Of a stretch of DNA of 64,000 nt, positions 5,995-55,772 are shown one piece after another (position 1 is the stretch's first letter; each line of letters starts with the position of its first letter). Both the position numbers and the translations under genes were made by a program. The stretch lies in IMG/VR virus record IMGVR_UViG_3300045988_172855, one strand, 5' to 3'. Origin of the DNA: a virus. The notes under the pieces are model-generated. The model had not been told where the DNA came from. It saw only the letters and a list, made by a program, of their open reading frames with translations, and did not search any database.

Positions 5995-6006
5995 AATAAC
6001 ACTGTT

Positions 6007-6570
6007 TTATGATTTTGACATGATCATTTTAATGATCTCATCTTTCTTTTTATTTTTTAAATCTTTTTCTTCGAAACCACCGCCTTCTTCTGTCATTCCC
6101 ATTTCAATTAATTGTTTGACAGTCAAAGTATTGAGTTCGTTGAACAACTCATCGTCAATATCTTCATCACCTTTTTCTGCTTTTTCGGTTTCTATTTCTT
6201 TATCATCTTTCTTTTCTTCTTTAGAAGGAGAAATACCTTTTTGTAAATCTTCAACAGCTTTTTTCCAAGATTTAATTTCTTCATCTTTTTTGTCAAGCTC
6301 GACTTTTTGAGATTCAATGATATTCTTCAAACGATTGATCTCGTTTTTAAACTCTTCATTACCTTCAGAAACCTCTTGTCTCAATTTACTTTCAAGAGAA
6401 GTTTTGTATTCAGGTTCATCGCCTTCTTTATAAATATTAGGGAGTTTGCGATCAACGAGCTCTTGATACAATTCTTCAGAAATATCTGCATTTCCATTTA
6501 TAAAATGAATTACTCCACCATTTAATTTAATTTTTTGAGAGCTATACACTCTACTTCTTACTTTTACCAT
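6007..6570 (-). CDS. acidic coiled-coil protein downstream of capsid gene
   Basis: The track start at 6576 is TTG; the first ATG is at 6570. Central Glu/Lys-rich coiled coil. The C-terminal LTVKQLIEMG...KDEIIKMI resembles a SAP/Rho_N-like helix pair. Confidence 0.4.
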   Translation of the reverse strand: MVKVRSRVYSSQKIKLNGGVIHFINGNADISEELYQELVDRKLPNIYKEGDEPEYKTSLESKLRQEVSEGNEEFKNEINRLKNIIESQKVELDKKDEEIKSWKKAVEDLQKGISPSKEEKKDDKEIETEKAEKGDEDIDDELFNELNTLTVKQLIEMGMTEEGGGFEEKDLKNKKKDEIIKMIMSKS

Positions 6571-6596
6571 AATCAATTTGTTTTAGGTTTTCAAAA

Positions 6597-6636
6597 AGAG
6601 AAAGGAGAGGAGTTTATGATCTCTCCTCCCCTTTCT
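6597..6636 (-). terminator. hairpin after major capsid gene
   Basis: Purine/pyrimidine arms AGAGAAAGGAGAGGAG / CTCTCCTCCCCTTTCT give about 12 bp of pairing with one mismatch. On the - strand it is followed by CTTTTTG. Confidence 0.55.
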
Positions 6637-6656
6637 TTAGTTGTTTTTATTTGTTT

Positions 6657-8177
6657 TTAAACAAGACCTTCTTCACCGATATTCACGATACGAACAATCT
6701 TAGCAGGCTGATACAATACCGGAGTACCGTAATTCAAAATTGCAAATCTACGAGAAGGAGCTGTAATAGCAAAATCCATCTTCATAGTATCAGCAAACTG
6801 CAAATATTCGTTAATCTGATTATCATTGTAGTAAATCAATGCAGATTTTGTACCTGCAATGATACGATTGCGGTCACGAACACAATTAGCAGCAGCACCA
6901 TCCCATCCACTAGCCATTTGAGAAGCAGGAACTTCAAAGATAGGATAATATTCTGTTGTATTGTTAAGCGCAGCATCTTTCTTTGTACGATAAATTACGA
7001 AGCAAGTAGCTGCATAAGCACCACCAACACCGGCAGTAAATCCAAATTCAACTGAATCAGTTGCTGCAACAGCTTGAGCACCTCCTGAAGTAATATTCAA
7101 AGGAGCAGATTCACCGTAACGGTTCTTAGCAGTAACCAAATAACCGTAAGTACCTGCATGACGACCGAAGTTTGTCTTAGTGTCATTATTGTTTACTTTA
7201 ATAGCAGTTCCGACAACTGGAATAACCGGAGCTTTAGGTGAAGTTGCTTGTTTTCCTACAGTGATCGGTTTACGTTCATCAAAGAAACGGTCGTTTTTGA
7301 TATTGATCTTACCAAACTGAGTAGTAACATCATTTACACTCTGACCCATTGTTGCACCGGTTACAGAAGCAGCCAAACCTACAATAACACGTTTTGATTC
7401 GTGGAACAATTTAACGTAATTGTTAAATACAATCGGGTTAGAAATGATGCGATCAATATAACCGTTATACACGTTAACAACAACGTTAGCTGCATCCTGA
7501 ATCAAATTGTCATTCAAAACCTGATTCTGAGCATCAATAACAGCCGGAGAATTGAAATAATTATCAAGTAACTGTTCTGAAGTCTTACCTTCTGCAGTAC
7601 CTCCATCCATTTCGTTTACACCAAGCATGTGTTGACGGAATACGCCATCAAACTGTTCAGGGACACAAGTAGAGTCTGCATCAACCAAACGAGCATCCAA
7701 AATAGTTTGTAACAAAATAGTCTTATTCTCAACTTCTTTGGTGTACATATTCATACCACCAGCCAATCTAGCGAGCATTGCAGGATGAGTAACCTGACCT
7801 GTAACACCCATAAATTTGGTGATGATTGACTTACGTCTGTACTGAGAATCGGTTTCTTCCGGAGTTTCACCTTCAGTATTAAAGATACCAACTTCTTCAC
7901 CATACTTATACAACTGATTATACTGATGTACTGTATTGTCGATCTTATGTTTCGGCATTTCCATCAAGTAAACCAACTGATTTAAGCGGTTACCCAAGAT
8001 CTTTAATGTAGAGTCGAGTGATTCAACTTTCAGACCACCACCATTGTTGATCTGATTGTTATATTGCATACCGGTCTGAAGACCAGCTTCCATTGCTTTC
8101 AAAATGTCTTTTGCGGAAATTTCATCCAACAAGTTCGCTCCTGAAGCATCGTTAGTATTGTAATTATACAGATCCAT
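6657..8177 (-). CDS. putative major capsid protein
   Basis: 506 aa, directly after the protease- and scaffold-like genes and followed by an attenuator hairpin. The call rests on position and size. Confidence 0.6.
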   Translation of the reverse strand: MDLYNYNTNDASGANLLDEISAKDILKAMEAGLQTGMQYNNQINNGGGLKVESLDSTLKILGNRLNQLVYLMEMPKHKIDNTVHQYNQLYKYGEEVGIFNTEGETPEETDSQYRRKSIITKFMGVTGQVTHPAMLARLAGGMNMYTKEVENKTILLQTILDARLVDADSTCVPEQFDGVFRQHMLGVNEMDGGTAEGKTSEQLLDNYFNSPAVIDAQNQVLNDNLIQDAANVVVNVYNGYIDRIISNPIVFNNYVKLFHESKRVIVGLAASVTGATMGQSVNDVTTQFGKINIKNDRFFDERKPITVGKQATSPKAPVIPVVGTAIKVNNNDTKTNFGRHAGTYGYLVTAKNRYGESAPLNITSGGAQAVAATDSVEFGFTAGVGGAYAATCFVIYRTKKDAALNNTTEYYPIFEVPASQMASGWDGAAANCVRDRNRIIAGTKSALIYYNDNQINEYLQFADTMKMDFAITAPSRRFAILNYGTPVLYQPAKIVRIVNIGEEGLV

Positions 8178-8212
8178 AATTTATTTAGTTTTTAGTTTTC
8201 TCCGAATTCTTA

Positions 8213-8875
8213 TTATTTGCACAATTTAATATCGCATTTATCATACATATATTGAGCGAGTTCTTGACCAACGGTTTCAGCTTCCGGATTTGTCAAATAC
8301 GCCAACATATCACCTTCCATTGATTTCTGTAAAGTTTCAGACATCTGATCGTAAGCCTTTTCAATTGCCTTTACAACCAACGGACGTTGAGAAATAATAT
8401 TCATCTCATATTTATTATTCTCGTCTTTAGCGATCTGCATTGATTTCTGAATAGCATTTACATTTTCCAATCCAGCAGAACGGAAACTCGGCGTCTGTCC
8501 GCCAATTTTATCAATCTTATCACTCAATACATCCAAAGTTTCAGCCATCTTCTCCATAATAGGAGCAAATACGCCCATAGATTTAGCAAAGGTTTCTTCT
8601 ACAGCTTTTTTGATGCCTTCAGCATCACGATCTTCTGCAGTATCTTTTTCATCGTCCTTTACTTTTTCTTCTTTCTTAACAGCTTCTTTTTCGAGTTTAT
8701 CGATATCTTTTTCCTGCTTTGTTTCAGATTCGTGATCACCTGCAGCGGCAGCGTCTTCACTCTTCTCGATTTTGATATCGCCTTTTTCAATACTTTTTGC
8801 GATATAATCTTCAGTGAAACCCATAGCTAACATGGATTTAACTATCGCGTTGTCTTTGTAGTCTTCAAACTTCAT
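8213..8875 (-). CDS. putative scaffolding protein
   Basis: 220 aa, strongly acidic and Lys-rich helical sequence (EKEAVKKEEKVKDDEKD...), located between the protease-like and capsid genes. Confidence 0.55.
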   Translation of the reverse strand: MKFEDYKDNAIVKSMLAMGFTEDYIAKSIEKGDIKIEKSEDAAAAGDHESETKQEKDIDKLEKEAVKKEEKVKDDEKDTAEDRDAEGIKKAVEETFAKSMGVFAPIMEKMAETLDVLSDKIDKIGGQTPSFRSAGLENVNAIQKSMQIAKDENNKYEMNIISQRPLVVKAIEKAYDQMSETLQKSMEGDMLAYLTNPEAETVGQELAQYMYDKCDIKLCK

Positions 8876-8935
8876 AATTACTGAATTTTATTTGTTTATG
8901 TAAAAATAGAACCAAAATTTTACTTATCAAATTAA

Positions 8936-9715
8936 TTAACGAAAATTTTGCAAGTAGTCCCATAAAATTTTCGAAGAAATGTGACCCTCCATATAACTTT
9001 TATACAATTCTTTAAAGTCGTCACTCTCTACTCCTTCTGTCGGAAATGCTTTCAAAACAAAATTTTTATCAATAGAAAGAAGATATCCATTCTTTTCCAT
9101 TTCTAAAAGAATATTAGTTTGTTTAAAACTAACGCTATCGCTTTCAGAACAATCAATATAATCCTGTTTCTGAATACCCTTAACTATATCAGCATAAGTA
9201 TTTGCATTAACAGGAGTCATTGTCATTGCTACATTTGTAATTAATGCTTTTGTAATTTTTTTCGGATTCTTTTTATCTCTTTCTAATGCCTTACCTTCAA
9301 TACTAAAACCAGGTTTACGATTTGTTCCCGATTCTTGCATTTCTAACGCTTTATCATAAAAAGCTCTAGCTTCAGGAGATTTTTTCCACAATTGACACTT
9401 GACAAAAAATTTATTGTCTTTGACTTTAGCATCTAAAGGGGCTCCTATCCAAAATCGAGACTTGTTTATCGGACTACGCGAAGTAAGATGATCTAGATTT
9501 ATCAATCCGTGTTTCAAAAAACGATCAATAATAAAACCATTTGGTTCCATTGATTCTTCTTCTGAATCTTCGGACGCATCGGAAGCCAAACCCTCAAAAA
9601 TCATTCTTTCGTACCGCTTATCGTCTCCTACTGGATAATCAAGCGGATTGAATTTAGAAGATTTTTCAAGATTGGCTTCTGTGAAAAAATTAAACTTAGC
9701 ATCTATATCAAACAT
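8936..9715 (-). CDS. putative prohead maturation protease
   Basis: 259 aa upstream of the scaffold and capsid genes. Segments GFSIEGK...NVAMTMTPVN resemble prohead protease families. Not verified by any search. Confidence 0.45.
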   Translation of the reverse strand: MFDIDAKFNFFTEANLEKSSKFNPLDYPVGDDKRYERMIFEGLASDASEDSEEESMEPNGFIIDRFLKHGLINLDHLTSRSPINKSRFWIGAPLDAKVKDNKFFVKCQLWKKSPEARAFYDKALEMQESGTNRKPGFSIEGKALERDKKNPKKITKALITNVAMTMTPVNANTYADIVKGIQKQDYIDCSESDSVSFKQTNILLEMEKNGYLLSIDKNFVLKAFPTEGVESDDFKELYKSYMEGHISSKILWDYLQNFR

Positions 9716-10565
9716 CCTTTATATGTTCCATTGTCAACGAATTTACGAAATTATCAATCAATTTATCTATTTCTCGATACTTTCTGACTTGCTTCCAATC
9801 TTCAATATCGACTTCCTTATGAATCCCCATTAATGCTCCAAATAAAGCTGCATTTGTATCCGTATCAAATCCTAAATTCACTACGTCACAAAGGTCTTCT
9901 TTTAAGGTAGAACTCTTTGTTCTCAATTTCAAATAATTATCTAAAATCAAGTTATATGTATTAATAACATCTCCTCGATTTTGATAACTATCAACCGAAA
10001 AATCGAACTTGATATTTTCTTGCGGTAAAGCTCTCAACAATTTTTCAAGTAAGCAACAATAATTACCACCAAACTTAAAACAATTAGGATTATTATGAGT
10101 GAATAAGCTAAAAAAGTTGAATAAACTCATAGTCTCTGAAGCTACGAACTCCTTTTTCGTAGATCTATAAATTGCAACAGGAAGAGCATAAAACATTGCA
10201 CCGTTTCCCATCGAATCTGTTCTCGGACAACCATTCCTCATAATAGAAGATGATGTTTGCGATCCTATATCGAATAATCCTTCTCCTGCATTGAAACCTT
10301 TATTATGATACCAATCCTTTAGATTATCTCTCATTTTATTAAAAACATCCATCATATTATTCGTCTTAATAGAAAGTGCATCTATAAGACATAACAGAAT
10401 AGATGTATCGTCAGACCAAGTGCCAATCGGTTGATTATGATATCCTCCTTTTGAAAATCCGACGCAATTAAATTTGGTCGGATTTTGAAATTCAAAAGGA
10501 ACTCCTAAAGCATCGCCAATTATATAAGCTCTGATACTATTCTTTATCTTTTCTATCGTTTTCAT
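9708..10565 (-). CDS. ADP-ribosylglycohydrolase (ARH/DraG family)
   Basis: N-terminal IIGDALGVPFEF, WSDDTS, and C-terminal GFDTDTNAALFGALMG are the hallmark ARH metal-binding motifs. Confidence 0.85.
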   Translation of the reverse strand: MKTIEKIKNSIRAYIIGDALGVPFEFQNPTKFNCVGFSKGGYHNQPIGTWSDDTSILLCLIDALSIKTNNMMDVFNKMRDNLKDWYHNKGFNAGEGLFDIGSQTSSSIMRNGCPRTDSMGNGAMFYALPVAIYRSTKKEFVASETMSLFNFFSLFTHNNPNCFKFGGNYCCLLEKLLRALPQENIKFDFSVDSYQNRGDVINTYNLILDNYLKLRTKSSTLKEDLCDVVNLGFDTDTNAALFGALMGIHKEVDIEDWKQVRKYREIDKLIDNFVNSLTMEHIKDV

Positions 10566-10710
10566 CCGTTTCCGAATTTAAGCTGTTTAAAATTAGTCTT
10601 ACAGACTCTGTTTTTAACTTCTCTACTTCTTCTTTAGAAGGTTCACTAACAACTATTGATATTGATTCTCCATCTTCTTCCCATCTAGGATGTACTTTTT
10701 TCTTTGCCAT
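10537..10710 (-). CDS. small ORF (57 aa) overlapping ARH start
   Basis: Own translation: MAKKKVHPRWEEDGESISIVV.... It starts at the first ATG downstream of promoter 10746-10777 and overlaps the ARH start by 29 nt. Just below the track size cut-off. Confidence 0.3.
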   Translation of the reverse strand: MAKKKVHPRWEEDGESISIVVSEPSKEEVEKLKTESVRLILNSLNSETDENDRKDKE

Positions 10711-10745
10711 AATTTTAATTTTTTAATTACTATTCTTTTGAATGC

Positions 10746-10777
10746 CTAAAGATACACCTTTTATTTCATTCGGACAA
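10746..10777 (-). promoter_or_regulatory. Bacteroidota-type promoter (TTG-N20-TATCTTTAG)
   Basis: The - strand reads TTGTCCGAATGAAATAAAAGGTGTATCTTTAGGCAT. Same consensus as about 17 other copies in the window. Confidence 0.6.
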
Positions 10778-10783
10778 CAATTA

Positions 10784-13300
10784 TTAAACAATTTCGACAA
10801 CAATAGAATTTGTTCCTCTTGCAAGTACTTTATACTTTAATCCAGCTTGAGCTAAATATTCACTTTCGACAATATTATCTACATTCATAACCGGATCTCC
10901 TTTCTTAGCTAACAAAGTTAAATGAAGATCTGATCCAAAATCAGTTTCATGTTTCATTCCAAACGATACAAAAGATTTATCTTCAATTACTTGACCTACT
11001 TTTGCATTAAGCCATGTACTAAGATTATCTCCATTCCCTCTAATTTCCAATCTTCTGTTTAATACCATATTTCGCTTCAGAGGATTTTGTTCAATAGCTT
11101 CTTTAATAAGACCTATTCTCGTTTTAGTACTCTCTATTTTTTCTTCTGAAAAGACCTTTGATTTTGGTGATTCTGTTAGAATATCTCTTATTGCCATATA
11201 ACCTGAACCTGTATAATTTTTTATCGCTTTACGTTGATCATCTGTCCATTTGGTCGACGTTTCTTTGGCGTCTTTTTGATATATCTCGAAAAACTTTTCT
11301 TTATCTTCAAATGAATTATTCTTATTAATATACAAATAATCTTCTTTATTGTAATTATGATAAACCAATCCATTTACAACCGGAGCATATCCTCGTGTAA
11401 TTAACATTGCGTTAATTGCTTTTTTATTTTTATCATTAGAAAGACCATATTGCTCTATTATTTCACCAAAATTATAATCATCGATAAAGCCAAATATCTT
11501 TGATTTTAAATCGGAAGTTTTAGAAGACAAATCCTTAGTAAGATATTTATCTGCATCGGATTTCATTTTCTCAACCTCTTCTTTAGCGTAAAGGTTAGAT
11601 AATTCCGATCTCTTTTCATTCCAATCATAAAATTGCTTTACTGTTTCAAAATTCTTACCTTCAGCAAAAGATAATTTCTCTTCTTTCTTTTCTGTTTTCG
11701 TAGATTGTTGTTTATTCAACTCTTCTTTAATGCGTTTCTTAAAATCAACCAACGATTCATAAGGCTTCGACTCTAATTTAAATCCAGGAGAAGTTGCTTT
11801 ATACTGATTATCGCCTTTCATTTTAATAACGACAGTCTTACCGTCTTGTTTAACATAGGTTTGAGTGATTTTCTTAAACCCAGTCATATCGCTTATTTTT
11901 TTATCAATTTCGCCGGTTATTTCTTGTTTTAACTTATCTAATTTATTATCTATAGATTCTTTCTCACTCTCTTTCTTTTTCTTAAATTCTTGAAGCTTTT
12001 CCTGAATTTTATCCAAAACATCCTGATCTAATTCGAGTTCACCTTTTTCTTGAGCTTCAAGAAGATTTTTATAAGCATCTTCTACAGTAAATTGTTTATT
12101 CGATTTATCGTCAGAATCTTGTTGCTCATTTCTTTTATTTAATTCTTCTTGAGCAACTTTCTTTAATTCGGAGTTGGCTTCAGGATCTTTTATAGCCGCT
12201 TTCAATTGTTCGTCTGTTGCAGATGTAGCTTGTTTAGCCAAAATTTCTGTAGAAGATTGTTTTGAAGTCGACTCTTCTTCATTCTTCTTTCCTCCCTTAG
12301 CTTTTGGCTTCCAACCCTTTTCAGTTTTAATATATAATTTACCGCCCCACGTCTTTTCTGTCCCAATAGGTGAACCTTTCTTCGCTTTTTCTATAATTTC
12401 CATAGATTTTGTAATCGTCTGATTATAAATTTTCCACGAATTCAATTTCGCATACTTCATCGCCTCTTTTCTATCTTCTTTCCACTTTTTAACTTCTTCT
12501 GCAGTTCCTTGAGGCTTTTCTTTATTGTAAACGTATTCCCAATCAAAAGATTTCTTATCTTTTTGAGGATATACTGTGACATCTCCGATTGTAAAAGATT
12601 GTTTCTGAACCTCTTTATTCTTCTGTGCTTTTTCTTGTCTTTTATTTTCTAAATAGGATTTGTATTCACTTTTAGTGCGATTAAAATCCATCCACTTTTC
12701 TACAAAAGAATAAAGTAACGCATATTCACTTTCTTCTATCCCTATTTGTTCCAATACTTTTAATATACCCTCTCTTTTAGGTAAATCCAATAGTTCAAAA
12801 TTATTAGACTCTTTTATAATTGTCTCATAATTTTTCTTAGACGAAAGTCTTTCGACATCAGAAATAATCTTTTTTAAATCTTCGGTTTTATAACCGTAAG
12901 CTGTGTTAATTGATATATCTGAAGAACCGTCTCCGTAAAGATTAAAATCAATGCCTAAATCAGTTTCTTTATCCTGATTCTTCTTTGTATGATTCGAAAT
13001 TCTTATATCAAAGTCGCTATTTTTCTTTTTAAATTTAAAATAAGAAGAAGCTGTTGATTTACTTTCAATATATTCATATCTTATCCCCTCATTCTCTAAC
13101 CACTTCTTAAACGACTTAGCGATTTGCTTTGGATTGACATTAGTCATTTCTATAACATCCTGCTTCTTATTGATGATTTTGGAACGACTTTCTATCTCCT
13201 TTTCTTCATAAACGTATCGAAAACCACCTTTCCCATCCGGCTCTTTTCTAATGTATTTATGAAAAATAGCTTTCTCTAAAAGATCTTTGATTTTCTCCAT
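10784..13300 (-). CDS. large virion-module protein with C-terminal ADP-ribosyltransferase (Alt/C3-like R-S-ExE) domain
   Basis: The C-terminus has KNYTGSGYMAIRDIL, NRRLEIRG, KSFVSFG (S-x-S) and VESEYL (ExE, codons 10859-10867). The track start at 13399 runs through the upstream hairpin, so ATG 13300 (MEKIKDLLEK) was used. Confidence 0.75.
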   Translation of the reverse strand: MEKIKDLLEKAIFHKYIRKEPDGKGGFRYVYEEKEIESRSKIINKKQDVIEMTNVNPKQIAKSFKKWLENEGIRYEYIESKSTASSYFKFKKKNSDFDIRISNHTKKNQDKETDLGIDFNLYGDGSSDISINTAYGYKTEDLKKIISDVERLSSKKNYETIIKESNNFELLDLPKREGILKVLEQIGIEESEYALLYSFVEKWMDFNRTKSEYKSYLENKRQEKAQKNKEVQKQSFTIGDVTVYPQKDKKSFDWEYVYNKEKPQGTAEEVKKWKEDRKEAMKYAKLNSWKIYNQTITKSMEIIEKAKKGSPIGTEKTWGGKLYIKTEKGWKPKAKGGKKNEEESTSKQSSTEILAKQATSATDEQLKAAIKDPEANSELKKVAQEELNKRNEQQDSDDKSNKQFTVEDAYKNLLEAQEKGELELDQDVLDKIQEKLQEFKKKKESEKESIDNKLDKLKQEITGEIDKKISDMTGFKKITQTYVKQDGKTVVIKMKGDNQYKATSPGFKLESKPYESLVDFKKRIKEELNKQQSTKTEKKEEKLSFAEGKNFETVKQFYDWNEKRSELSNLYAKEEVEKMKSDADKYLTKDLSSKTSDLKSKIFGFIDDYNFGEIIEQYGLSNDKNKKAINAMLITRGYAPVVNGLVYHNYNKEDYLYINKNNSFEDKEKFFEIYQKDAKETSTKWTDDQRKAIKNYTGSGYMAIRDILTESPKSKVFSEEKIESTKTRIGLIKEAIEQNPLKRNMVLNRRLEIRGNGDNLSTWLNAKVGQVIEDKSFVSFGMKHETDFGSDLHLTLLAKKGDPVMNVDNIVESEYLAQAGLKYKVLARGTNSIVVEIV

Positions 13301-13314
13301 AATAATATAAAATA

Positions 13315-13333
13315 GGAGGAGGATATCTCCTCC
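13315..13333 (-). terminator. short hairpin after Nudix-protein gene
   Basis: GGAGGA..TCCTCC 6-bp stem, followed on the - strand by TATTTTATATTATT. Confidence 0.35.
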
Positions 13334-13338
13334 ATTAA

Positions 13339-15483
13339 TTAATGTAACTGTAAACGATATTTGGTTTGTTTCAATGTAGCAAGGAAATCTTCTGTCCAAG
13401 ACTTTTCACCAACATAATCAGTATGATCATCAATTTTACCATAGAACTTCTTGGTACGATCTATGATCAAATCAATCAAACCAATAGGATCGTTGACTTC
13501 AATTTCTTCACCATTTACAGAACCGTCTTCAAATCGACCAAATTCACTTTGACCTGCTTCCATGATCTTGTCTTCGTAATCAGAAAGTTCCTCAATCAAA
13601 TCATCGAGATAAACGTGTTTGGAATTATCTAACTCTCCCCAATGTACATTTTTTGATCTTGTTTTCGCACCTTCAAGAAAATTAGCATAATCAACGAAAA
13701 CGTTATACATAGCATCTTTAGCTTTTTGAACACCATCGTCTAAAGACGGATCTCTATGAATCTCGTCGTGTATCTCGTCAATACCCCATGCTTTTTCAAT
13801 CTCCTCGTTCTTAGTTTCAATCGAAGCAATATCTAATTTACCTGAATCTTTCATTTCATCAACCAATGACTTAAACATCTCTGCTTGATCTAAATCATTA
13901 AAATTGATTAATATATTGAAACCTTGTACATCGTCTTCAACTTTCTGAGATTTTTCAATATTCTCAGTCTTCTGAAGACTATACATGCGAATATTGCCCT
14001 TAAAATCCCAAGTTTGCTCACCATTTTCTTCTGTAGACAATGTTATAGAAAATTTCCTTCCTAAGTTAGATACCTTTTGTAACGTTCCTAAGAAATCAAA
14101 TAATTTATCACCATTACCACCGTCATTATCGCTATAACCAAAACTTGCATTTCCGTATGTATATTTTTTAGGATTTTCAGTAGCATCGACAACTCTCTCT
14201 ACATACTCAACCTTTTTAAAAGTAATTGCCTTTTCGATACCATCTCCGTCAGGTTTCTTTGTCTCACCCTCAAGACTTTCCTTACAAATTGCATTCACGT
14301 CATTACAATCCATAGTTTTTTCAACCTCGTTCCATGATTCAGGTAATTCGTTTGTTGCACCAAGATCTTTTGCTCTGCGTTTCAAATAAGCAATTACATC
14401 TGATTTAGGAAGGTCTGAATTACCAACCAACTTGATTGCGTTTTTCAGATCAGAACGATTGCGAACAGGAAAACGACCGCCTACCATAGCTTTTCCTTCT
14501 TTCTCAAGTTTTGCACGCTCTTTCTCAGAAATATAAGATTTTGCTATACAAGATAATTCAGGCTTATTGACTTCTTTTTCAATTTCCTCTTTATGTTTTT
14601 TACAAAAATCTTCAAAAATCTTTTCATTGATCTCACCTCGAGCAAATGCCTTTGTTATAATCTGAATAGGTCCTTCCGGACACTCTCTACCAAGAATCTT
14701 TTTGATATTTTCTTTCATATCAAAAATAAAATCGTAGTCATCTAACTCTGTTCTAGTATCGATCCAAGTACTTCCAACTTCTTCTTCGCTATCGACAATA
14801 ATCTGTATAGGCGATTCATCGTCAACGTGACCTAAGAAATAATGAATCTCGTAATCTTTGCCTTTTGCAACACCTGCTTCAATCAAAAGATCTTCGGGGA
14901 TCTCAATACCTGTTTCTTCAAACAATTCTCTTGCGGCTGCTTCGAGAAAACTTTCTCCTGGATCAACGTGACCGCCAGGTATACACCATTGTTGTGTACT
15001 TGCTCCGTATTCACCAGCTCTTTGTAAAATCAAAAGTTTATCACCTCTAAACAACAATACATCGGCATAGCGTACTTTACCAGTCTTAGCCTTGATTATA
15101 TCATTATAAACTGATTTCGAAATATTCCCTTTCTTTAATTCGTTCTTTGCTGAATAGATGTTATAAATATCATTCAAAGTATCACTTATCTCTTTATCGG
15201 CAGATAATTTTGATAACGATTTAAAAATCTGTTCTCTTTTTCTTTGAACAATAGCAATATTTTTAGCATGTTCTTCTAAAAATTCATTATAACGTTTTTC
15301 TGCATCTACTCGCTCCTTCTCATCTAAAGTTGAAAAACTTTTAGCGATTGAACTTTTTTCAGCAAAAAGAGTTGATAAATCACTTATTTCGTTCGCAATC
15401 TCGAAAGATTTCTTCAACAAACTTCTATATTCAGCAACTTTCTCTGAATTAGATTGTAAATTAAATAATTTCTTAATATTCAT
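13339..15483 (-). CDS. 714-aa Nudix-domain protein (virion module)
   Basis: Perfect Nudix box GHVDPGESFLEAAARELFEETGI (14905-14976 also covers the Gly residue before it; fits GX5EX7REUXEEXGU). N-terminal coiled coil. The C-terminal KNVHWGELDN..LDDLIEEL..D.IMEAG is weakly Dps/ferritin-like. Confidence 0.8.
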   Translation of the reverse strand: MNIKKLFNLQSNSEKVAEYRSLLKKSFEIANEISDLSTLFAEKSSIAKSFSTLDEKERVDAEKRYNEFLEEHAKNIAIVQRKREQIFKSLSKLSADKEISDTLNDIYNIYSAKNELKKGNISKSVYNDIIKAKTGKVRYADVLLFRGDKLLILQRAGEYGASTQQWCIPGGHVDPGESFLEAAARELFEETGIEIPEDLLIEAGVAKGKDYEIHYFLGHVDDESPIQIIVDSEEEVGSTWIDTRTELDDYDFIFDMKENIKKILGRECPEGPIQIITKAFARGEINEKIFEDFCKKHKEEIEKEVNKPELSCIAKSYISEKERAKLEKEGKAMVGGRFPVRNRSDLKNAIKLVGNSDLPKSDVIAYLKRRAKDLGATNELPESWNEVEKTMDCNDVNAICKESLEGETKKPDGDGIEKAITFKKVEYVERVVDATENPKKYTYGNASFGYSDNDGGNGDKLFDFLGTLQKVSNLGRKFSITLSTEENGEQTWDFKGNIRMYSLQKTENIEKSQKVEDDVQGFNILINFNDLDQAEMFKSLVDEMKDSGKLDIASIETKNEEIEKAWGIDEIHDEIHRDPSLDDGVQKAKDAMYNVFVDYANFLEGAKTRSKNVHWGELDNSKHVYLDDLIEELSDYEDKIMEAGQSEFGRFEDGSVNGEEIEVNDPIGLIDLIIDRTKKFYGKIDDHTDYVGEKSWTEDFLATLKQTKYRLQLH

Positions 15484-19383: not shown

Positions 19384-20868
19384 TTATACACCTGCTTGTG
19401 TTAAAGTAACTGTAATAGTTTTACCTCCTTCACTTGCAGCAACCTTCGCTTGTCCTGTTCTTTGAGAACCTGTGTTATTTGCAGCAATTACAGAATATTC
19501 AGAATCTCCTTTAGAAAAACCTTCTCCTGTAACAGTTGTAGTATAATTCACAGCAGAAGCTGGACCACTAATTTTACCATTTGCTTTCTTTTGTTTCTTA
19601 CTTGAAACGCTAAAAATTTTCGTTTCACCTGCTGCGATAAATGAAAGTGAATCAGGATCTACATCTAAAGTATATTCATAAGTTACAACAGCAGCAGCTT
19701 GTGTAAGAGTAATTTCAGCAGTCTTTCCACCTTCAACAGCAGAGATAGTCACCTTACCTGTTCTTTGTGATTCAGCAGTATTTTCAGCCGCTACAACTGT
19801 TGTATCATTACTACCTTTCGTAAATCCTGCTCCTGAAACAGTAGTCGTGTAACCTACATTAACAGGAGAACCTGAATCGTTACCATTCAATTTTTTCTGT
19901 TTTACAGAAACAACATTAAACGATTTAGATTCACCTGCTGCAGCGAATGAAATATTTGTAGGAGTAGGAAGTAAGGAGTATTCATACGTAATAACTGATG
20001 CAGCTTGTGTAAGATTAACTGTCGCACTCTTACCACCTTCATCCATAGTAATCGTGATTTCCCCAGTTCTCTGTGTATTACCTGGATTTTCTTCTGCTTT
20101 GATATTAAATCCATCTGAAATAGCACTATAAGAAAATCCTACACCAGCAACTTCAATATGTGTTCCAATATTCGTAGGATTTCCGGAAGGTTTTCCGTTT
20201 ATTATAACTTGTTTTGTTGATGTAACAGTAATCTTTTTTGTTTCACCTGTATTTACAAACGAAAGTGAATTAGGATCTATTGTTAAGTTATATGTATAAC
20301 TTACTGTAGAAGCTTCTTGTGTAAGATTGATAGTAATCTTCTTATTACTTTCATGTTGTGTTACAGTTAAAACACCGTTTCTTACAGAAGTAGTCGGATT
20401 TTCAGCAATAGTTACTGTACCACCTTTACTTACTGTGTAAGGAGATTTTGTTTCAAAGTCAACTTCCAACGGTGTTTGTACACCTGTCGGCTTTCCGTTT
20501 ACATAAAGTTGCTTATAGGAAGTAACAACAGCCTCTATGCTGTCACCTTCCTTGGGAAACGCCATTGTCTTATCTTGCGGAATAAGAAAATAACGCATCT
20601 CTTCAACTATATCAACGAGAATCTGCTCCTTTCCTTCATATTCTTCAGGATAAGCAATGAGACGTAATATATTATTCATTGCCCATTCTTTAAATTGACC
20701 TATATTATAGGTGAGACCTGCTCGAATAACTATTCCGAGACTTTCAAAGTAATCCACATCTCCCACTGTATTCTCTGTAACAAATACATTCAACTGACTG
20801 TCGATACCGTCAGTAATAACAGTCAGTTGATGGAGATTATCTTTTGTTGTAAATAATAATCTATACAT
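19384..20868 (-). CDS. virion-module protein with 3-4 tandem BACON/Ig-like repeats
   Basis: Repeats of about 101 aa each end ..N(T/P)..QRTG.(V/I)T....GGK....(L/V)TQA(A/G). The N-terminal ~100 aa is paralogous to 20874..21455. Confidence 0.5.
   Translation of the reverse strand: MYRLLFTTKDNLHQLTVITDGIDSQLNVFVTENTVGDVDYFESLGIVIRAGLTYNIGQFKEWAMNNILRLIAYPEEYEGKEQILVDIVEEMRYFLIPQDKTMAFPKEGDSIEAVVTSYKQLYVNGKPTGVQTPLEVDFETKSPYTVSKGGTVTIAENPTTSVRNGVLTVTQHESNKKITINLTQEASTVSYTYNLTIDPNSLSFVNTGETKKITVTSTKQVIINGKPSGNPTNIGTHIEVAGVGFSYSAISDGFNIKAEENPGNTQRTGEITITMDEGGKSATVNLTQAASVITYEYSLLPTPTNISFAAAGESKSFNVVSVKQKKLNGNDSGSPVNVGYTTTVSGAGFTKGSNDTTVVAAENTAESQRTGKVTISAVEGGKTAEITLTQAAAVVTYEYTLDVDPDSLSFIAAGETKIFSVSSKKQKKANGKISGPASAVNYTTTVTGEGFSKGDSEYSVIAANNTGSQRTGQAKVAASEGGKTITVTLTQAGV
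19387..20304 (-). repeat. three full ~303-nt tandem coding repeats (a degenerate fourth copy extends to ~20556)
   Basis: The protein repeats span aa 189-289, 291-391 and 393-494, as aligned by eye. Confidence 0.6.
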
Positions 20869-49545: not shown

Positions 49546-51486
49546 TCAGCAGAGGAATTTCTCTTTGAACTCCGTGGCTGTAAAGATCGGAATTCCTAGA
49601 CTCTCTGCCTTCAATTCCTTTGTCGAATTGCTTCCCTTTTCTTTTACCACCACGCACGTTGTTTTCTTACTCACCGAAGATCCTATCTTATGACCCATTT
49701 CAGTAAGTTTTCTCTCCCAATCTTTATTTCTGAATCCGGTAAAAACAATTGTCATCTGACCATCAAACGATTTCTCTTCAAGACCGTAATATGTAATAGG
49801 AATTGTAAACAAATCTGATGTCCATGACATCCACCAATCCATAATCCCCATGATGAAAGCGTAAGCTGTATTAAAACCCACTCCTTCTACACATCCTTCA
49901 ATCTCAGATGCCCAATTCTCATTACACTCCTTGGCAAAAGAAGATATGTCTTCGTAAGTATATAGTTTCAATCCATTGAGAATCTTTTGACACGTTTTCT
50001 CAGCTATAACTCCTTTAAAAAAATTATAAGCTGTCATCATTTTTGCAAAATTAGTACCTTTCTTTCTCAGCTCTTCAAATTGTTTCGAAAGTACTTTTGC
50101 CGCAACATTACCAAGACCTTCAATGTTTTTGAGTTCATTTTCATTCAATCTAATAATGGATGTAGGATCTTTATATCCTGCATTAAAAATCTTCTTGATA
50201 GTTGGTTCTCGAAACTCTTTAAAGTCAAGTATAGAGAAAAAATAAACACATCTAGATAATAATACGCCTTCACATTGCGAATTCGTACACATCAAGTCTA
50301 CATTATTCGAATCCCACACTAATTCTTTACCACATATTGGACAAACTGTAGGAGTCTTTGAATATGTATTTGTATACGAAACTGTTTTAAGATGTTTTGG
50401 AATAACGTCTCCTGAACGACATATCACTACTCTTGCTCCCGGAACAATATTGTTCTCAACGATATAACGAGCATTATATGCAGTACATTTTGATACAGTC
50501 GCGCCACACAATTCAATCGGTTCAATCTCAACAACAGGAGCTAATCTTCCGTCCTTAGAAATTTGCCAACGAACCTCTTTTACAACAGTTTCTTCTCTTT
50601 CTGACCATTCAGGATTTTTATAAGCAATAGCATATCTAGGATTATTATTCGCAAGTCGTCCTAATTCTCTTCTTTTCTTTGCATTGTTTACATCAATCAC
50701 AAGACCGTCACATTTATAACCTTTTGTCAATTTTTCAAATAAACTATTCATAAGATTGACAAAACCGTCTTCGTCTTCAAGTGATTTTACTGTAATTGTT
50801 GAGAAATTAACTCTACTTTGTTCGCAACTACACTCGTTTAAAATTTCGAGTTGCTTCTTCTTATCCCAATCCTCATTGTCACATCCATATCTTACATAAT
50901 TAACGTATTTTACAAACTCACTAACATTTGGTGAGTTGAGAAGACCTGCAACAGCATTTCTTGCAGATTTATATCCTGCTTCATCTTTGATTTTCAAAAA
51001 ATCTGCTGTTTTAAAAATCGCTTCACCGAATGAGAAAATCGGAAGTTCGTTGTCAAGAGATTGTGTATAAATTGCATTGTTTATACATTTTTCAAAATGT
51101 TCAGTACAATTTTGTCCAAATTCTCCATCACCACGAGTCCAAGCATTTCCAACTGTCTCTAATACACATAATGAAATCCCGTCATATTTAGGTGTAACAA
51201 TCAATTCATCTGTAGATTTTAAATCAATAGATTTGATCCATCTCAAAATCTCTTCGTGCGACTTCACCTTCTCAAGTGAGAACATAGGAATCGGAAGTTT
51301 CTCCTTTCTATCTTCAGACACTTTGTCTTGTACACCTTTCTTAAACCATTCAGAATCCGGATTTAATTCTTGTAATTGATCAACAAGTTGATCAAATTCT
51401 TGATCCGTTACTAATGGATTACCTTTTCGATACGCATCATTATATCTACGTATCAAACATTCTAATTCTAAAACTTCTTTATCCAT
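49546..51486 (-). CDS. ligA: NAD-dependent DNA ligase
   Basis: Adenylation motif VTPKYDGISL, Zn finger CPICGKELVWDSNNVDLMCTNSQC, HhH region, and C-terminal BRCT-like FTGFRNKDWE... Confidence 0.9.
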   Translation of the reverse strand: MDKEVLELECLIRRYNDAYRKGNPLVTDQEFDQLVDQLQELNPDSEWFKKGVQDKVSEDRKEKLPIPMFSLEKVKSHEEILRWIKSIDLKSTDELIVTPKYDGISLCVLETVGNAWTRGDGEFGQNCTEHFEKCINNAIYTQSLDNELPIFSFGEAIFKTADFLKIKDEAGYKSARNAVAGLLNSPNVSEFVKYVNYVRYGCDNEDWDKKKQLEILNECSCEQSRVNFSTITVKSLEDEDGFVNLMNSLFEKLTKGYKCDGLVIDVNNAKKRRELGRLANNNPRYAIAYKNPEWSEREETVVKEVRWQISKDGRLAPVVEIEPIELCGATVSKCTAYNARYIVENNIVPGARVVICRSGDVIPKHLKTVSYTNTYSKTPTVCPICGKELVWDSNNVDLMCTNSQCEGVLLSRCVYFFSILDFKEFREPTIKKIFNAGYKDPTSIIRLNENELKNIEGLGNVAAKVLSKQFEELRKKGTNFAKMMTAYNFFKGVIAEKTCQKILNGLKLYTYEDISSFAKECNENWASEIEGCVEGVGFNTAYAFIMGIMDWWMSWTSDLFTIPITYYGLEEKSFDGQMTIVFTGFRNKDWERKLTEMGHKIGSSVSKKTTCVVVKEKGSNSTKELKAESLGIPIFTATEFKEKFLC

Positions 51487-52312: not shown

Positions 52313-52801
52313 TTATAAATTTTTTCTACGACCATATTCTGCAATTAACAACGAATCTGCAAAATTATCGTCTTCATTTTTACATCTTTCTGTTCTTCTT
52401 AAATCTACAGTTGGAAATAACTTGTGACAAGCCATAAAACTCATTACCTTTTTATCGTCATTCTTAGCAATACCTTGGTGCATCACCTTTTGCCATGTTT
52501 TAGGTGCAACCTTTGTATATGGTAATCCTAATGTTGATAAAGTACCTTCTATCACTCCTACGATCCAACCGAAATTAAAATTTGATTTCGCAGATGAACC
52601 AAAAATCGAATGTACGTCCTCGAGTACAACATGACACCTTCCTTCGTAAATGCTCAAGTCGAATAAGTTTTGACTTATTTCAACAACGTCAACGACTTTT
52701 GAATTTTTCAATAAAGGGAAAGATTTAATCACTTTCCCATCTACGTTTACAATCGATACAAATCCTTTTTGACCAGGATCGATCCCTATATACACTTTCA
52801 T
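52313..52801 (-). CDS. RuvC-like Holliday junction resolvase
   Basis: N-terminal KVYIGIDPGQKG (catalytic Asp), VLEDV, and C-terminal DNFADSLLIAEYG. Confidence 0.65.
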   Translation of the reverse strand: MKVYIGIDPGQKGFVSIVNVDGKVIKSFPLLKNSKVVDVVEISQNLFDLSIYEGRCHVVLEDVHSIFGSSAKSNFNFGWIVGVIEGTLSTLGLPYTKVAPKTWQKVMHQGIAKNDDKKVMSFMACHKLFPTVDLRRTERCKNEDDNFADSLLIAEYGRRKNL

Positions 52802-54804
52802 TCTTCTAGTCTACTTATTCCGTTTTCTTTTATAATTCGAATTTGACTTATCTCTTCATTAATTTTAGGTACATGCGTAACAATTATAGACGATTGTTTC
52901 AAAAATTTAATTGAAGAGATGATGTTTTCAATTCCCAACGAGTCAGCACTCTCAAGTATTTCGTCAACTAACAAAAATTGCATTCCACCATATTGCTTCG
53001 TCGCATTGATCATTTGTTGGATTGCTAATATTAATGCAATTTCTGTTCTCGCCTGTTCTCCTCCTGAGTAATAGAAAAAAGACTCCATCTCATCGCGAAA
53101 TACATAAGGAGTTATTTCTTCTTTAACTTTTCCTTTTGCATCAACTTTAAAACCTTCAATCATTAATCTAAGATCACTTCCCATTGATTTAAGTATCTCG
53201 TTAGCACGAGATTGGATATTTTTTAATTGCTCCATAGCGAGATACATTTTAAAATCTTTAAATCGTTGTGTCCACCTTTGAATTTTAAAGATTTCATCAT
53301 TTTTGTTTGTAATCTTCTTACATTGATCATCAATAAGATGTTCGGTTTCTTTGATGGTGTTTTCAATCTCATCAGTACTTTTCTTTACCACCTTAGTGTT
53401 TTTCAGATCCTTAATGTAAGCTAATTTCAAAGAAATTAAATTCTCACCATTTTCAATCTCATTTTGCAGTGTCTTTACAAGATTTTCTTTTGATTTTATC
53501 TGTTGATCTAAACCTCCTATATTGTGTTCGAGTTCAAGGATCTTCTTTTTCAAACTTCTCTGTTGATTTGCAACTTCATCAAACTCTTTATCAGTCTGAG
53601 ATTTCAAAGACATATATTCATCTAAAACGGAATCAAGCTCTTCAATTGATTTTTCTGCAATCTTCTTTTCTTCAGACTCTTTATTTAACTCAATTTCAGC
53701 AGCTTCCTTTTGTTTTTTAATCTCTTGAACCGTTTTATCTGTTTTAAGAAAAAACTCGTGTTGACAATTAGGGCAAACTATAATTCCCGAAAGTAAAACT
53801 TCTATTTTATTAAGAGTTCTCTTAATGTCAACAATTCTATTTTGAATAACATTTAGAGAGTTCTCTTTAGTCCGCTTTTCTTGTCTACACACATCTACAT
53901 CTTCGTCAATTTCTTTGTAAATTGTATCAAAATTAGAAGTATCTATGTTCGAGAGTTCCTCTGAAACCTTTGTACGTAATTTTTCCAATTCACTTAAAGA
54001 ATGCTTTAAACCTAAAGCAGATTGTTGCTCTTTTGAAATACGAAGTTCGTTTGATTCAATAGCCTTTTTAACATCTTCAATGTAATCTTCAGCTTTTTTG
54101 ATTTCTTGAAGCTGCTCCTCTTCAGGATTACTATCAAGAATTTCTTGAAGCTGTTCCTGATATACCGAAAGTTTCCCTTCATAAGACGCTTTTGATCGAT
54201 CCAATGCCTGTTTTTCTTCGTTTAAAACCAAAACCTTATCATCTATAATGGATTTTGTTTTATCTAACATAGAGAAGTTTATAAACCGACTTATTAAAGC
54301 TAACTTTTCTGTGTTAGATGATCTAAAAAACGAATTATAATTACCTTTTGAGACAATATAATATGACTTTGCATCTTCGGCCGAAATTTCAACCCAATTA
54401 GCAATATATCTATTACCATCGAGAACTGTTGCAAATTGAACTTTCTCGATCTCAATCTCATCACCGTCATGGATCAAATATATTGCTAACACAGAAGATC
54501 CTTTTGCTCTTAGCTCTCTTTCGATTTTTAGAGTTTGTCTGCGAATTGGACAATAAATAAACACGCAGATATATGCCGTATCAAATCCCTTGCGTATTAA
54601 CTTCTTATCTTGTTTATCACGAAGATTTACTCCATAAATTCCGTAAAATAATCCTTGTTCTAAGAACGATTTACCTGATCCATTTGACAACTGATCGTCT
54701 TGAGTACGATTTTCACCAATGACAGCGATCGCCTCTTGTTGAAAATCGTACTCAATAGATTCAAATGGACCGAAATTTTTCAATACTATTCTTGTTGGGT
54801 ACAT
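52798..54804 (-). CDS. sbcC: SbcC/Rad50-like ATPase (T4 gp46-like)
   Basis: N-terminal LKNFGPF...NGSGKS Walker A, long coiled coil with a central CPNC hook-like motif, C-terminal YSGGEQ signature and LLVDEILES Walker B. Confidence 0.85.
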   Translation of the reverse strand: MYPTRIVLKNFGPFESIEYDFQQEAIAVIGENRTQDDQLSNGSGKSFLEQGLFYGIYGVNLRDKQDKKLIRKGFDTAYICVFIYCPIRRQTLKIERELRAKGSSVLAIYLIHDGDEIEIEKVQFATVLDGNRYIANWVEISAEDAKSYYIVSKGNYNSFFRSSNTEKLALISRFINFSMLDKTKSIIDDKVLVLNEEKQALDRSKASYEGKLSVYQEQLQEILDSNPEEEQLQEIKKAEDYIEDVKKAIESNELRISKEQQSALGLKHSLSELEKLRTKVSEELSNIDTSNFDTIYKEIDEDVDVCRQEKRTKENSLNVIQNRIVDIKRTLNKIEVLLSGIIVCPNCQHEFFLKTDKTVQEIKKQKEAAEIELNKESEEKKIAEKSIEELDSVLDEYMSLKSQTDKEFDEVANQQRSLKKKILELEHNIGGLDQQIKSKENLVKTLQNEIENGENLISLKLAYIKDLKNTKVVKKSTDEIENTIKETEHLIDDQCKKITNKNDEIFKIQRWTQRFKDFKMYLAMEQLKNIQSRANEILKSMGSDLRLMIEGFKVDAKGKVKEEITPYVFRDEMESFFYYSGGEQARTEIALILAIQQMINATKQYGGMQFLLVDEILESADSLGIENIISSIKFLKQSSIIVTHVPKINEEISQIRIIKENGISRLEE

Positions 54805-55772
54805 AACTCTTTCTTTACGGTTTCATATATTTCATTAAATAACTCTTGATCCTCAATAAGCGATTCGCGAACAGAATCCATACCTTGACCTAATTTATAA
54901 TCGTCTCCATAATAAAACCACGAACCTCTTTTTTGACAGATACCTAATTTTACAGCTAACTCAACTGCTTCTTGAATTGTATCGAATCCTATTCCGAAAC
55001 GCAACATCACTTCACAGTTTCTAAATGGAGGAGCTATTTTATTTTTAACAACTTTGATTTTTGTTTTATTTGCAACAGCAATGTCACCATCTTTATCCGT
55101 TCCGATTCGAGCAAATTCAACTCTTTGCGTTGAATAGAATTTCAATGCCTTGCCTCCAGGTGTCATTGTTGTTGCTCCTCCAAAACCAAAACCTCCACCA
55201 ACCTTATCTCTTAATTGGTTAATACAGAATAGTATATTATTGTTCTTTTTACATACATTTTTCAAGATACTTAATTGAGCTGACAATAGTCGAGCAACAA
55301 GTGCTACCTTTGCATCACCACTTTCTCCTTGTAGAGTTGCTTGTGGTACAAGACCTGCAACAGAATCAAGAACAACTAAACCTATTTCAGGACACATTAA
55401 CATTTCGCGAATAATTTCCATCGCTTCTTCTGCTGAGTTTGGCTGCGATAAAATCCAATTATCATTAGAAATATCTACACCAAGTTTTCTCGCATAATCC
55501 AAATCTAATGCCTGTTCAACATCAACATATCCTACAGCTTTCTTCTGTGTTTTTTGTACAGATGCACAAAGATGTAATGCACACGTACTCTTTCCACTAC
55601 TTTCATTCCCAAAACACTCATGAATTCGGCCTAAAGCCCATCCTCCACCAAGAACATTATCTAACGCTAGAGATCCTGACGATACAGTCTCGACTTCTAC
55701 ATTAGTTCCCACAATCGCTTCTTTTCCAAATCTCTTTTCAATTCTACCGAATAAATCGTCCAATCTACCCAT
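54786..55772 (-). CDS. recA: RecA recombinase
   Basis: FGKEAI...SSGSLALDNVLGGGWALGRIHECFGNESSGKSTCALH is collinear with the bacterial RecA N-terminus and Walker A. Confidence 0.9.
   Translation of the reverse strand: MGRLDDLFGRIEKRFGKEAIVGTNVEVETVSSGSLALDNVLGGGWALGRIHECFGNESSGKSTCALHLCASVQKTQKKAVGYVDVEQALDLDYARKLGVDISNDNWILSQPNSAEEAMEIIREMLMCPEIGLVVLDSVAGLVPQATLQGESGDAKVALVARLLSAQLSILKNVCKKNNNILFCINQLRDKVGGGFGFGGATTMTPGGKALKFYSTQRVEFARIGTDKDGDIAVANKTKIKVVKNKIAPPFRNCEVMLRFGIGFDTIQEAVELAVKLGICQKRGSWFYYGDDYKLGQGMDSVRESLIEDQELFNEIYETVKKELCTQQE

Follow-up and report, generated by a model that had tools for sequence, protein, structure and literature searches.

In a prophage of Bacteroides stercoris, the ADP-ribosyltransferase (ART) Bxa modifies arginine and is neutralised, as has been demonstrated experimentally, by an ADP-ribosylglycohydrolase (ARH), BAH, together with a small binding protein, Bsi (Alexei et al. 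2024, PMC11699363). In phages more generally, the genes of Alt/VIP2 ARTs and of Nudix proteins typically lie among head genes, and packaging of these proteins was inferred in the survey that reported this (Iyer et al. 2022, PMC9503650), while PBECR1 and MuF_C are domains that were defined in head-packaged polyvalent proteins (PMC5512222). Here we analysed a 64,000-nucleotide stretch of viral DNA (IMG/VR record IMGVR_UViG_3300045988_172855; "the window" hereafter denotes this whole stretch), in which the gene at 10784..13300 on the minus strand encodes a protein of 838 amino acids (aa) that ends in an ART domain of the C3/VIP2/Alt type and is followed by a 57-aa open reading frame (ORF) and an ARH gene. 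Since the 2022 survey (PMC9503650) describes ARG/ARH domains as rare in phages, the grouping of an ART with an ARH, and with a Nudix protein, in a head module is an uncommon combination. From our point of view, and by analogy with the described systems, the gene product is most likely a head-module, capsid-delivered, arginine-directed ART effector that is held in check late in infection, a reading that we hold with moderate confidence.

By description, the locus resembles that of Bxa, Bsi and BAH in that downstream of a C-terminal ART of the arginine type a small ORF and a hydrolase of the ARH family are encoded on the same strand. The two ART proteins further belong to a gut Bacteroidales setting and show modular domain exchange among related proteins. 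Bxa, however, has an N-terminal MuF domain and comes from a temperate prophage, whereas MuF was not detected in the window protein, which belongs to a phage of about 100 kb with replication genes and without prophage copies found. With Alt of phage T4, an ADP-ribosyltransferase of RNA polymerase that is packaged in the virion, the window protein shares, at the level of the fold, a C-terminal R-S-ExE ART in a large protein encoded with virion genes, but the sequence similarity is marginal and Alt-like PHROG profiles match nothing outside the ART domain. We know of no adjacent ARH or small-ORF partner in T4. The Serratia pair Tre1-Tri1 (6drh/6dre) and the Listeria pair Lmo0066-Lmo0067 (8za7) are matched in both chains by the window ART and ARH, whose genes are adjacent and co-oriented; these pairs, however, are bacterial secreted effectors directed against bacteria (Tre1 with a type VI secretion system PAAR domain), whereas the window pair lies in a phage head operon with the ART as the tail of an 838-aa protein. 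The toxins VIP2, iota Ia, CDTa, C2I and C3 have the same Pfam family (PF03496), fold and R / S / ExE constellation, but the window protein differs from the binary and C3 toxins by its single rather than duplicated ART, its S-F-G and Asn-Arg motifs, a shorter ARTT loop, the lack of a translocation component and its phage context. Lastly, polyvalent proteins (PMC5512222) and head-module NAD/ADP-ribose toolkits (PMC9503650) resemble the window family in combining multiple modules, among them ART and PBECR/MuF-C, with portal and capsid genes, and the latter also in Nudix proteins that are encoded in or fused to head proteins, as in relatives of the window protein. In contrast to polyvalent proteins, a single effector domain, the ART, could be recognised in the window protein, next to an uncharacterised N-terminal module.

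The gene and its C-terminal domain are delimited as follows.
10784..13300, minus strand: gene of the 838-aa multidomain protein, with ATG at 13300 and stop at 10784-10786 (ORF list and public gene calls)
10787..11386, minus strand: C-terminal ADP-ribosyltransferase domain, aa 639-838, of the PF03496 / C3-VIP2-iota-Alt type (Pfam, PDB profile, AlphaFold2 and Foldseek)

In the ORF list the reading frame extends over 10784..13399 (minus strand) when begun at a TTG. As the upstream gene ends at 13339 and public contigs carry an 838-aa call, we took the ATG at 13300, which yields 838 aa, as the start; the identical product is called on eight public contigs. The initial annotation had proposed an ART of the R-S-E clade (C3, iota, T4 Alt) at the end of this protein, an assignment that was upheld at the levels of sequence, profile and fold. 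KNYTGSGYMAIRDIL lies where it had been placed, at aa 694-708 (11177-11221), and the segments NRRLEIRG at aa 748-755 (11036-11059), KSFVSFG at aa 775-781 (10958-10978) and VESEYL at aa 811-816 (10853-10870) were confirmed as well, with E812-S813-E814 on exactly the codons given (10859-10867).

When compared with Pfam on their own, the last 200 aa match PF03496 (ADPrib_exo_Tox) with an E-value of 5.3e-10 and 39.4 bits, the curated cut-off of the family being 23.4 bits, and the same family matches 26 of 30 aligned relatives of the domain. Searches of Pfam and PHROGs with the whole 838-aa protein, in contrast, came back empty and the ART emerged only when the last 200 aa were used alone. As such, an empty whole-protein scan is no proof of absence for a Lys/Glu-rich protein of this kind. 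A single-sequence phmmer search of the PDB gave only noise (RNA polymerase beta, actinin; E >0.2), and among 50,697 GenBank phage records neither the region nor the ART domain nor the whole protein had a counterpart by megablast and tblastn. When the last 260 aa served as query, an exhaustive phmmer search recovered 115 representative proteins, and the more distant of these relatives carry textbook YxGxxYxxINxxLR, YRG, STS and ExE motifs. Against solved structures, a profile of 30 ART sequences matches VIP2 (3.6e-31), iota Ia (about 1e-26) and CDTa (about 1e-25), as well as CPILE-a/BECa, C2I, Certhrax, C3, Tre1, ExoS/T and Lmo0066; for the two toxins that have ARH partners, the values are 1.4e-29 (Lmo0066, 8za7_B) and 5.6e-11 (Tre1, 6drh_B). 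With 39.4 bits to PF03496 and with R749 and E814 invariant in the alignments, the motifs are, judged from the sequence, far beyond chance.

The predicted fold, an ART fold with an NAD cleft, agrees with this assignment. An AlphaFold2 model of the domain, built from the alignment of 30 relatives, reached a pLDDT of 92 and a pTM of 0.89, and Foldseek superposed the C-terminal domain, as had been suggested for a check of the fold, on CDTa, iota Ia, CPILE-a, VIP2 and C3 with TMq values of 0.65-0.73 and E-values of 1e-12 to 1e-9. The best predicted viral structures are gut-metagenome phage proteins labelled "Mono-ADP-ribosyltransferase C3" (46% and 40% identity), followed by proteins labelled "minor capsid protein", "head morphogenesis protein" and "ADP-ribosyltransferase domain and MuF-like fusion protein". 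In BFVD, a T4-type "RNA polymerase ADP-ribosylase" was matched at an E-value of about 1e-7, and among PHROGs the domain gave weak "Alt-like" matches (E 1.4e-4). Profiles and model thus support a C3/VIP2/Alt-type (R-S-ExE) mono-ADP-ribosyltransferase domain with NAD+ as the predicted substrate.

The predicted catalytic residues were followed through 240 domains from 220 proteins, over which conservation was counted.
11054..11056, minus strand: codon of R749, the predicted catalytic/NAD-binding Arg of strand beta-1 (240/240 domains; invariant in both alignments)
10964..10966, minus strand: codon of S779, the first Ser of the S-T-S motif, here S-F-G (Ser in 237/240 domains)
10859..10867, minus strand: E812-S813-E814, the ExE (ARTT) motif (E812 in 236/240 and E814 in 240/240 domains)

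In the profile alignment, the family consensus vlyRr, represented by VLNRR in the window protein, pairs with ITVYRW of VIP2 in the column of R749, and the consensus EkEyL, here ESEYL, pairs with EKEILL of VIP2 in the ExE column, the middle residue of ExE varying freely across the domains. The serine motif had been described as S-x-S, of which the first serine, S779, stands, whereas the second position does not, as the motif reads S-F-G. Across the domains, the residue following S779 is T or F and the one thereafter is S in most and G in the lineage of the window; S-F-S and S-T-S variants were both seen among relatives. An ExE motif is characteristic of ARTs with arginine specificity. As ExE is kept here rather than QxE, arginine side chains of bacterial proteins would, by analogy, most likely be the site of modification.

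One could speculate that an ART fold with such deviations serves a different activity, such as NAD+ glycohydrolysis, nucleic-acid ADP-ribosylation or ModB-like RNAylation with NAD-capped RNA, or that it is a catalytically dead structural domain. The degenerate STS motif (S-F-G) and the loss of the aromatic residue before the catalytic Arg could be read in this way, as could the ARTT loop, which is shorter than that of the toxins (alignment gap before ExE), and the association with a Nudix protein, as enzymes of this family are also known to decap NAD-RNA (PMC9503650). Nevertheless, we consider this alternative very improbable as a whole: since R, S and both Glu are essentially invariant over the 240 domains, a dead domain is unlikely as far as conservation can tell, and protein ARTs directed at arginine are marked by the combination of ExE with an ARH partner like Tri1 or Lmo0067.

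Directly downstream of the ART, two further genes and the limits of an exchangeable segment can be given.
9708..10565, minus strand: ADP-ribosylglycohydrolase (ARH) of 285 aa (PF03747, 7.8e-28; phrog_6572)
10537..10710, minus strand: 57-aa ORF between ART and ARH, overlapping the ARH start and called on public contigs; a candidate ART-binding inhibitor
10566..11707, minus strand: exchangeable cassette of linker, ART domain and small ORF (comparison with L003)

The best solved relatives of the ARH are Lmo0067 (8za7_A, 9.2e-18) and Tri1 (6dre_A, 1.2e-11), both immunity proteins of ART toxins. In the GVPFEF motif of the ARH, we read E25 as the catalytic Glu. The ART and ARH genes are thus adjacent, co-oriented and each homologous to the matching partner of toxin/immunity pairs. 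The 57-aa ORF between them is highly charged, and since it is 96% identical in one related phage (L006) and recognisable in another (L004; RW..G.SIV, then an acidic helix), we regard it as a real gene. A comparison with a nearly identical phage (L003) defined the cassette. Their identity is 98.4% as far as position 11708 and resumes with 99.1% at the ARH start codon (10565), so that the right breakpoint falls exactly at the ARH start, and the ARH itself is 100% identical. Between the breakpoints there is no nucleotide similarity, and L003 carries another ART allele (38% identity at the aa level) and another small ORF. In L003 the gene (6001-9191) is called as two overlapping ORFs of 681 aa and 384 aa, and its ART domain may be a separate protein or depend on a frameshift. 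That the small ORF changes strictly in step with the ART allele was considered and rejected, with L003 speaking for it and L006 against it.

That the 57-aa protein and the ARH would serve as immunity to the ART is suggested by several of these observations taken together, namely (i) the relationship of the ARH to Lmo0067 and Tri1, (ii) the match of the ART profile to the toxins of these two proteins, (iii) the joint exchange of ART and small ORF, and (iv) the precedent of Bxa.

The remainder of the protein consists of two parts.
11387..12439, minus strand: conserved core, aa ~288-638 (about 47-75% identity with relatives bearing other N-termini; AlphaFold2)
12440..13300, minus strand: variable N-terminal module, aa 1-287 (absent or replaced in relatives)

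The initial annotation had described the N-terminal ~650 aa as low-complexity and coiled-coil, and Lys and Glu are indeed frequent in the protein (16.6% and 11.1%, compared to 9.6% and 8.8% in other long ORFs of the window). A Lys/Glu-rich helical stretch is present, but the region is not merely of low complexity, as aa ~290-640 are conserved and contain beta units in the AlphaFold2 model. In this model, the core consists of a beta-hairpin motif, GTEKTWGGKLYIKTEKGWKP, the helical Lys/Glu-rich stretch, a small beta domain (aa 481-510) and a helical linker; family and fold searches with the core (Pfam, PHROG, Foldseek) gave no match, neither to a MuF head-morphogenesis domain nor to any other. 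The N-terminal module has only 12 homologues, none of which is annotated and some of which stand alone as proteins of 250-344 aa. It contains the segment IRISNH (aa 99-104; 12989-13006), of which R100, S102 and H104 are invariant among the homologues. This segment had been likened to linker domains of polyvalent proteins, which could not be verified, as the N-terminal module matches nothing known: Pfam gave no match, the best PHROG match had an E-value of only 0.048, hhalign against the PBECR1 and MuF_C modules of relatives returned a probability of 0.1%, and Foldseek with a model of aa 1-640 found nothing below an E-value of 0.5, the pLDDT around aa 100-140 being 31-60. A known polyvalent-protein linker and a PBECR-type nuclease are hence both unsupported as identities of the module, with backing from neither Pfam, PHROG, hhalign nor Foldseek.

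Relatives have the C-terminal ~555 aa, that is the core and the ART, in common and differ in their N-terminus. The most populous clusters represent a 555-aa form without aa 6-285, whereas the N-terminus is replaced by PBECR1 in one lineage (P0096) and by MuF_C in another (P0115). In two further relatives (P0039 and P0090; L005 5001-8012), an extra canonical ART (LIRG / STT / QEE) is inserted after aa ~447, behind the Lys-rich stretch. This second ART is of the QxE type, and these proteins combine two ARTs whose specificity probably differs.

The genes that surround the ART gene include those of the phage head.
17658..19364, minus strand: portal protein (phrog_12, 1.4e-34; PF04860 on a public contig)
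8936..9715, minus strand: head maturation protease, overlapping the ARH stop (phrog_1028, 4.8e-37)
6657..8177, minus strand: major capsid protein (phrog_752, 2.5e-49; tblastn to capsid genes)
13339..15483, minus strand: 714-aa protein with an intact Nudix box and a C-terminal DUF5856 (PF00293, 3.3e-18)

On the same strand, the order is portal, three small genes, Nudix/DUF5856 protein, ART protein, 57-aa ORF, ARH, protease, a 220-aa protein and the major capsid protein, which places the ART gene, co-oriented with the virion genes, downstream of the portal gene and upstream of those for protease and capsid. This order is retained in a lineage with a 47%-identical ART protein and also in the PBECR1-bearing lineage. 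It is this position among head genes, together with the PBECR1 and MuF_C modules of relatives and the capsid-annotated structural neighbours of the ART domain, that points to a link of the protein with the capsid.

Directly beside the portal gene lies a gene for a protein with BACON and fn3-like domains (19384-20868, minus strand), which points to a lifestyle tied to Bacteroidota or to gut mucus. The portal gene (1005 aa) of a related phage, L006 (1-1443), carries Intein_splicing and LAGLIDADG_3 domains. Almost all ORFs of at least 100 aa in the window are on the minus strand and the GC skew is negative in every 2-kb bin, which argues that the whole 64 kb are transcribed in one direction. The phage is uncultured and present on many public contigs, the longest of about 100-107 kb, and encodes DnaE, an NAD-dependent ligase and SNF2 and UvrD helicases. 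The best GenBank relatives of its capsid protein are from uncultured phages of human faeces (71%), and distant ones are from Bacteroides phages (tblastn). The NAD-dependent DNA ligase (adenylation, OB, Zn-finger and BRCT domains; 49546-51486, minus strand) represents a further NAD-consuming function in the genome. The replication module also includes a pair of SbcC-like (AAA_23/SMC_N) and SbcD-like (Metallophos) genes (52798-56806, minus strand), and the gene for a DnaE-type Pol III alpha subunit (59760-63044, minus strand) shows a LAGLIDADG_3 match at aa 522-579, probably an intein or a homing-endonuclease insertion.

The trio of ART, small ORF and ARH mirrors bxa-bsi-BAH of the Bacteroides prophage (PMC11699363), so the protein might instead be a polymorphic toxin of the Bxa-like MuF type, which would be released at host lysis rather than injected and would act on competing bacteria or mammalian gut cells, with the ARH and the small ORF serving purely for self-immunity. 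The human gut setting, as indicated by the BACON domain and the relatives of the capsid protein in human faeces, would fit such a role, and the exchange of ART allele and small ORF as a cassette is also seen with polymorphic toxins. We nevertheless regard this as unlikely, for several reasons. The window protein showed no MuF domain. Members of the MuF toxin family combine a conserved N-terminus with variable C-terminal toxins, whereas here variation is greater at the N-terminus and all relatives found at the locus end in an ART domain. The genome is large, with contigs of about 100-107 kb, and has its own DnaE, ligase and helicases. Finally, pattern scans of 185,579 GTDB species genomes recovered neither ART nor capsid protein relatives and hence gave no sign of prophage life, which is, however, weak negative evidence.

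The 714-aa protein encoded upstream of the ART gene deserves attention in its own right. Its Nudix box is intact by direct reading of GGHVDPGESFLEAAARELFEETGI, and nine other phage proteins join its first ~325 aa to an ART of this family, from which a functional link between Nudix and ART can be argued. In two phages (L007 and L008), such a Nudix-ART fusion is found at the corresponding place, ahead of the protease, scaffold and capsid genes. Elsewhere the ~325-aa N-terminus occurs in fusions with the ART family, ART-PolyVal, DUF5661, DUF6496 and PF18762, and the 714-aa protein looks like a second modular effector carrier.

With regard to the Nudix protein and the ARH, it has been proposed that phage Nudix, Macro, NADAR and ARG domains counter host defences (Iyer et al., PMC9503650). 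Both could accordingly be independent erasers that act against a host immunity based on ARTs or ADP-ribose signals, their adjacency to the ART reflecting only a shared late or packaged toolkit. Such an explanation would account for the phages with a Nudix-ART fusion that have no ARH, and for the ARH that stays constant when the ART allele changes. The latter, however, is also what one would expect here, as an enzymatic eraser should tolerate swaps of the ART allele. Moreover, the nearest solved relatives of the ARH are immunity partners of ART toxins and the window ART matches those very toxins, and the Nudix module and the ART are found in one polypeptide in nine proteins. We therefore consider an independent role of the two enzymes improbable.

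A more far-reaching interpretation is that Nudix, ART, 57-aa protein and ARH form a single capsid-linked toolkit to "write, trim, block and erase" ADP-ribosylation, with the 57-aa protein representing a new, allele-specific family of ART inhibitors. In that case, the injected ART would modify arginines of the host, and the co-delivered Nudix protein might convert the adduct to phosphoribose, beyond the reach of host hydrolases, or destroy defence signals derived from ADP-ribose. Phages that are otherwise identical would exchange the 57-aa inhibitor and its ART in one cassette. We consider this idea improbable.

Returning to the reading that we prefer, a capsid-delivered ART effector, the following course of events is proposed. 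The ART protein would be produced alongside the head proteins, travel inside the capsid and enter the next host with the DNA, as do T4 Alt and polyvalent proteins. Once injected, it could modify host targets early in infection, possibly jointly with the Nudix protein. Late in the producing cell, the 57-aa protein would block the ART and the ARH would erase any modification that occurs, whereas in the newly entered cell the ART, like T4 Alt, would act without these two late proteins. Related phages would then exchange the cassette of ART and small ORF, as well as the N-terminal module, under an arms race.

Several points weigh against this scenario, in which we infer the packaging, the activity and the role of the small ORF. 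Pfam searches with the whole protein and its segments revealed neither MuF (PF04233) nor any other known capsid-targeting domain; among the distant relatives of the ART domain, PF04233 is carried by only 1 of 68. As S-F-G replaces S-T-S and an Asn stands in place of the aromatic residue before the catalytic Arg, the activity could be altered. The 57-aa ORF has no PHROG match and belongs to no recognisable family, and its link to the ART, based on one cassette swap and on conservation, makes it a candidate partner. In L006, the small ORF is 96% identical, compared to only 72% for the ART and 72-74% for the flanking genes. Lastly, L007 and L008, the phages with a Nudix-ART fusion, lack an ARH, so that the hydrolase is not obligatory for this ART family.

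Overall, the window protein is a well-supported but rather unremarkable representative of phage effectors of a known class, and the components of the locus and the logic that joins them have all been described before. Current concepts hence remain unchanged, as ARTs among head genes and immunity pairs of ART and ARH were both known already. What the present locus provides is a clean and abundant example of a head-module ART from an uncultured gut phage, together with natural, near-isogenic variants that have or lack the N-terminal module, carry alternative cassettes of ART and small ORF or contain a second, inserted ART. As such, this set of variants would be convenient for studying the targets of ARTs in Bacteroidota-type hosts, the self-protection of phages and the cooperation between Nudix proteins and ARTs.

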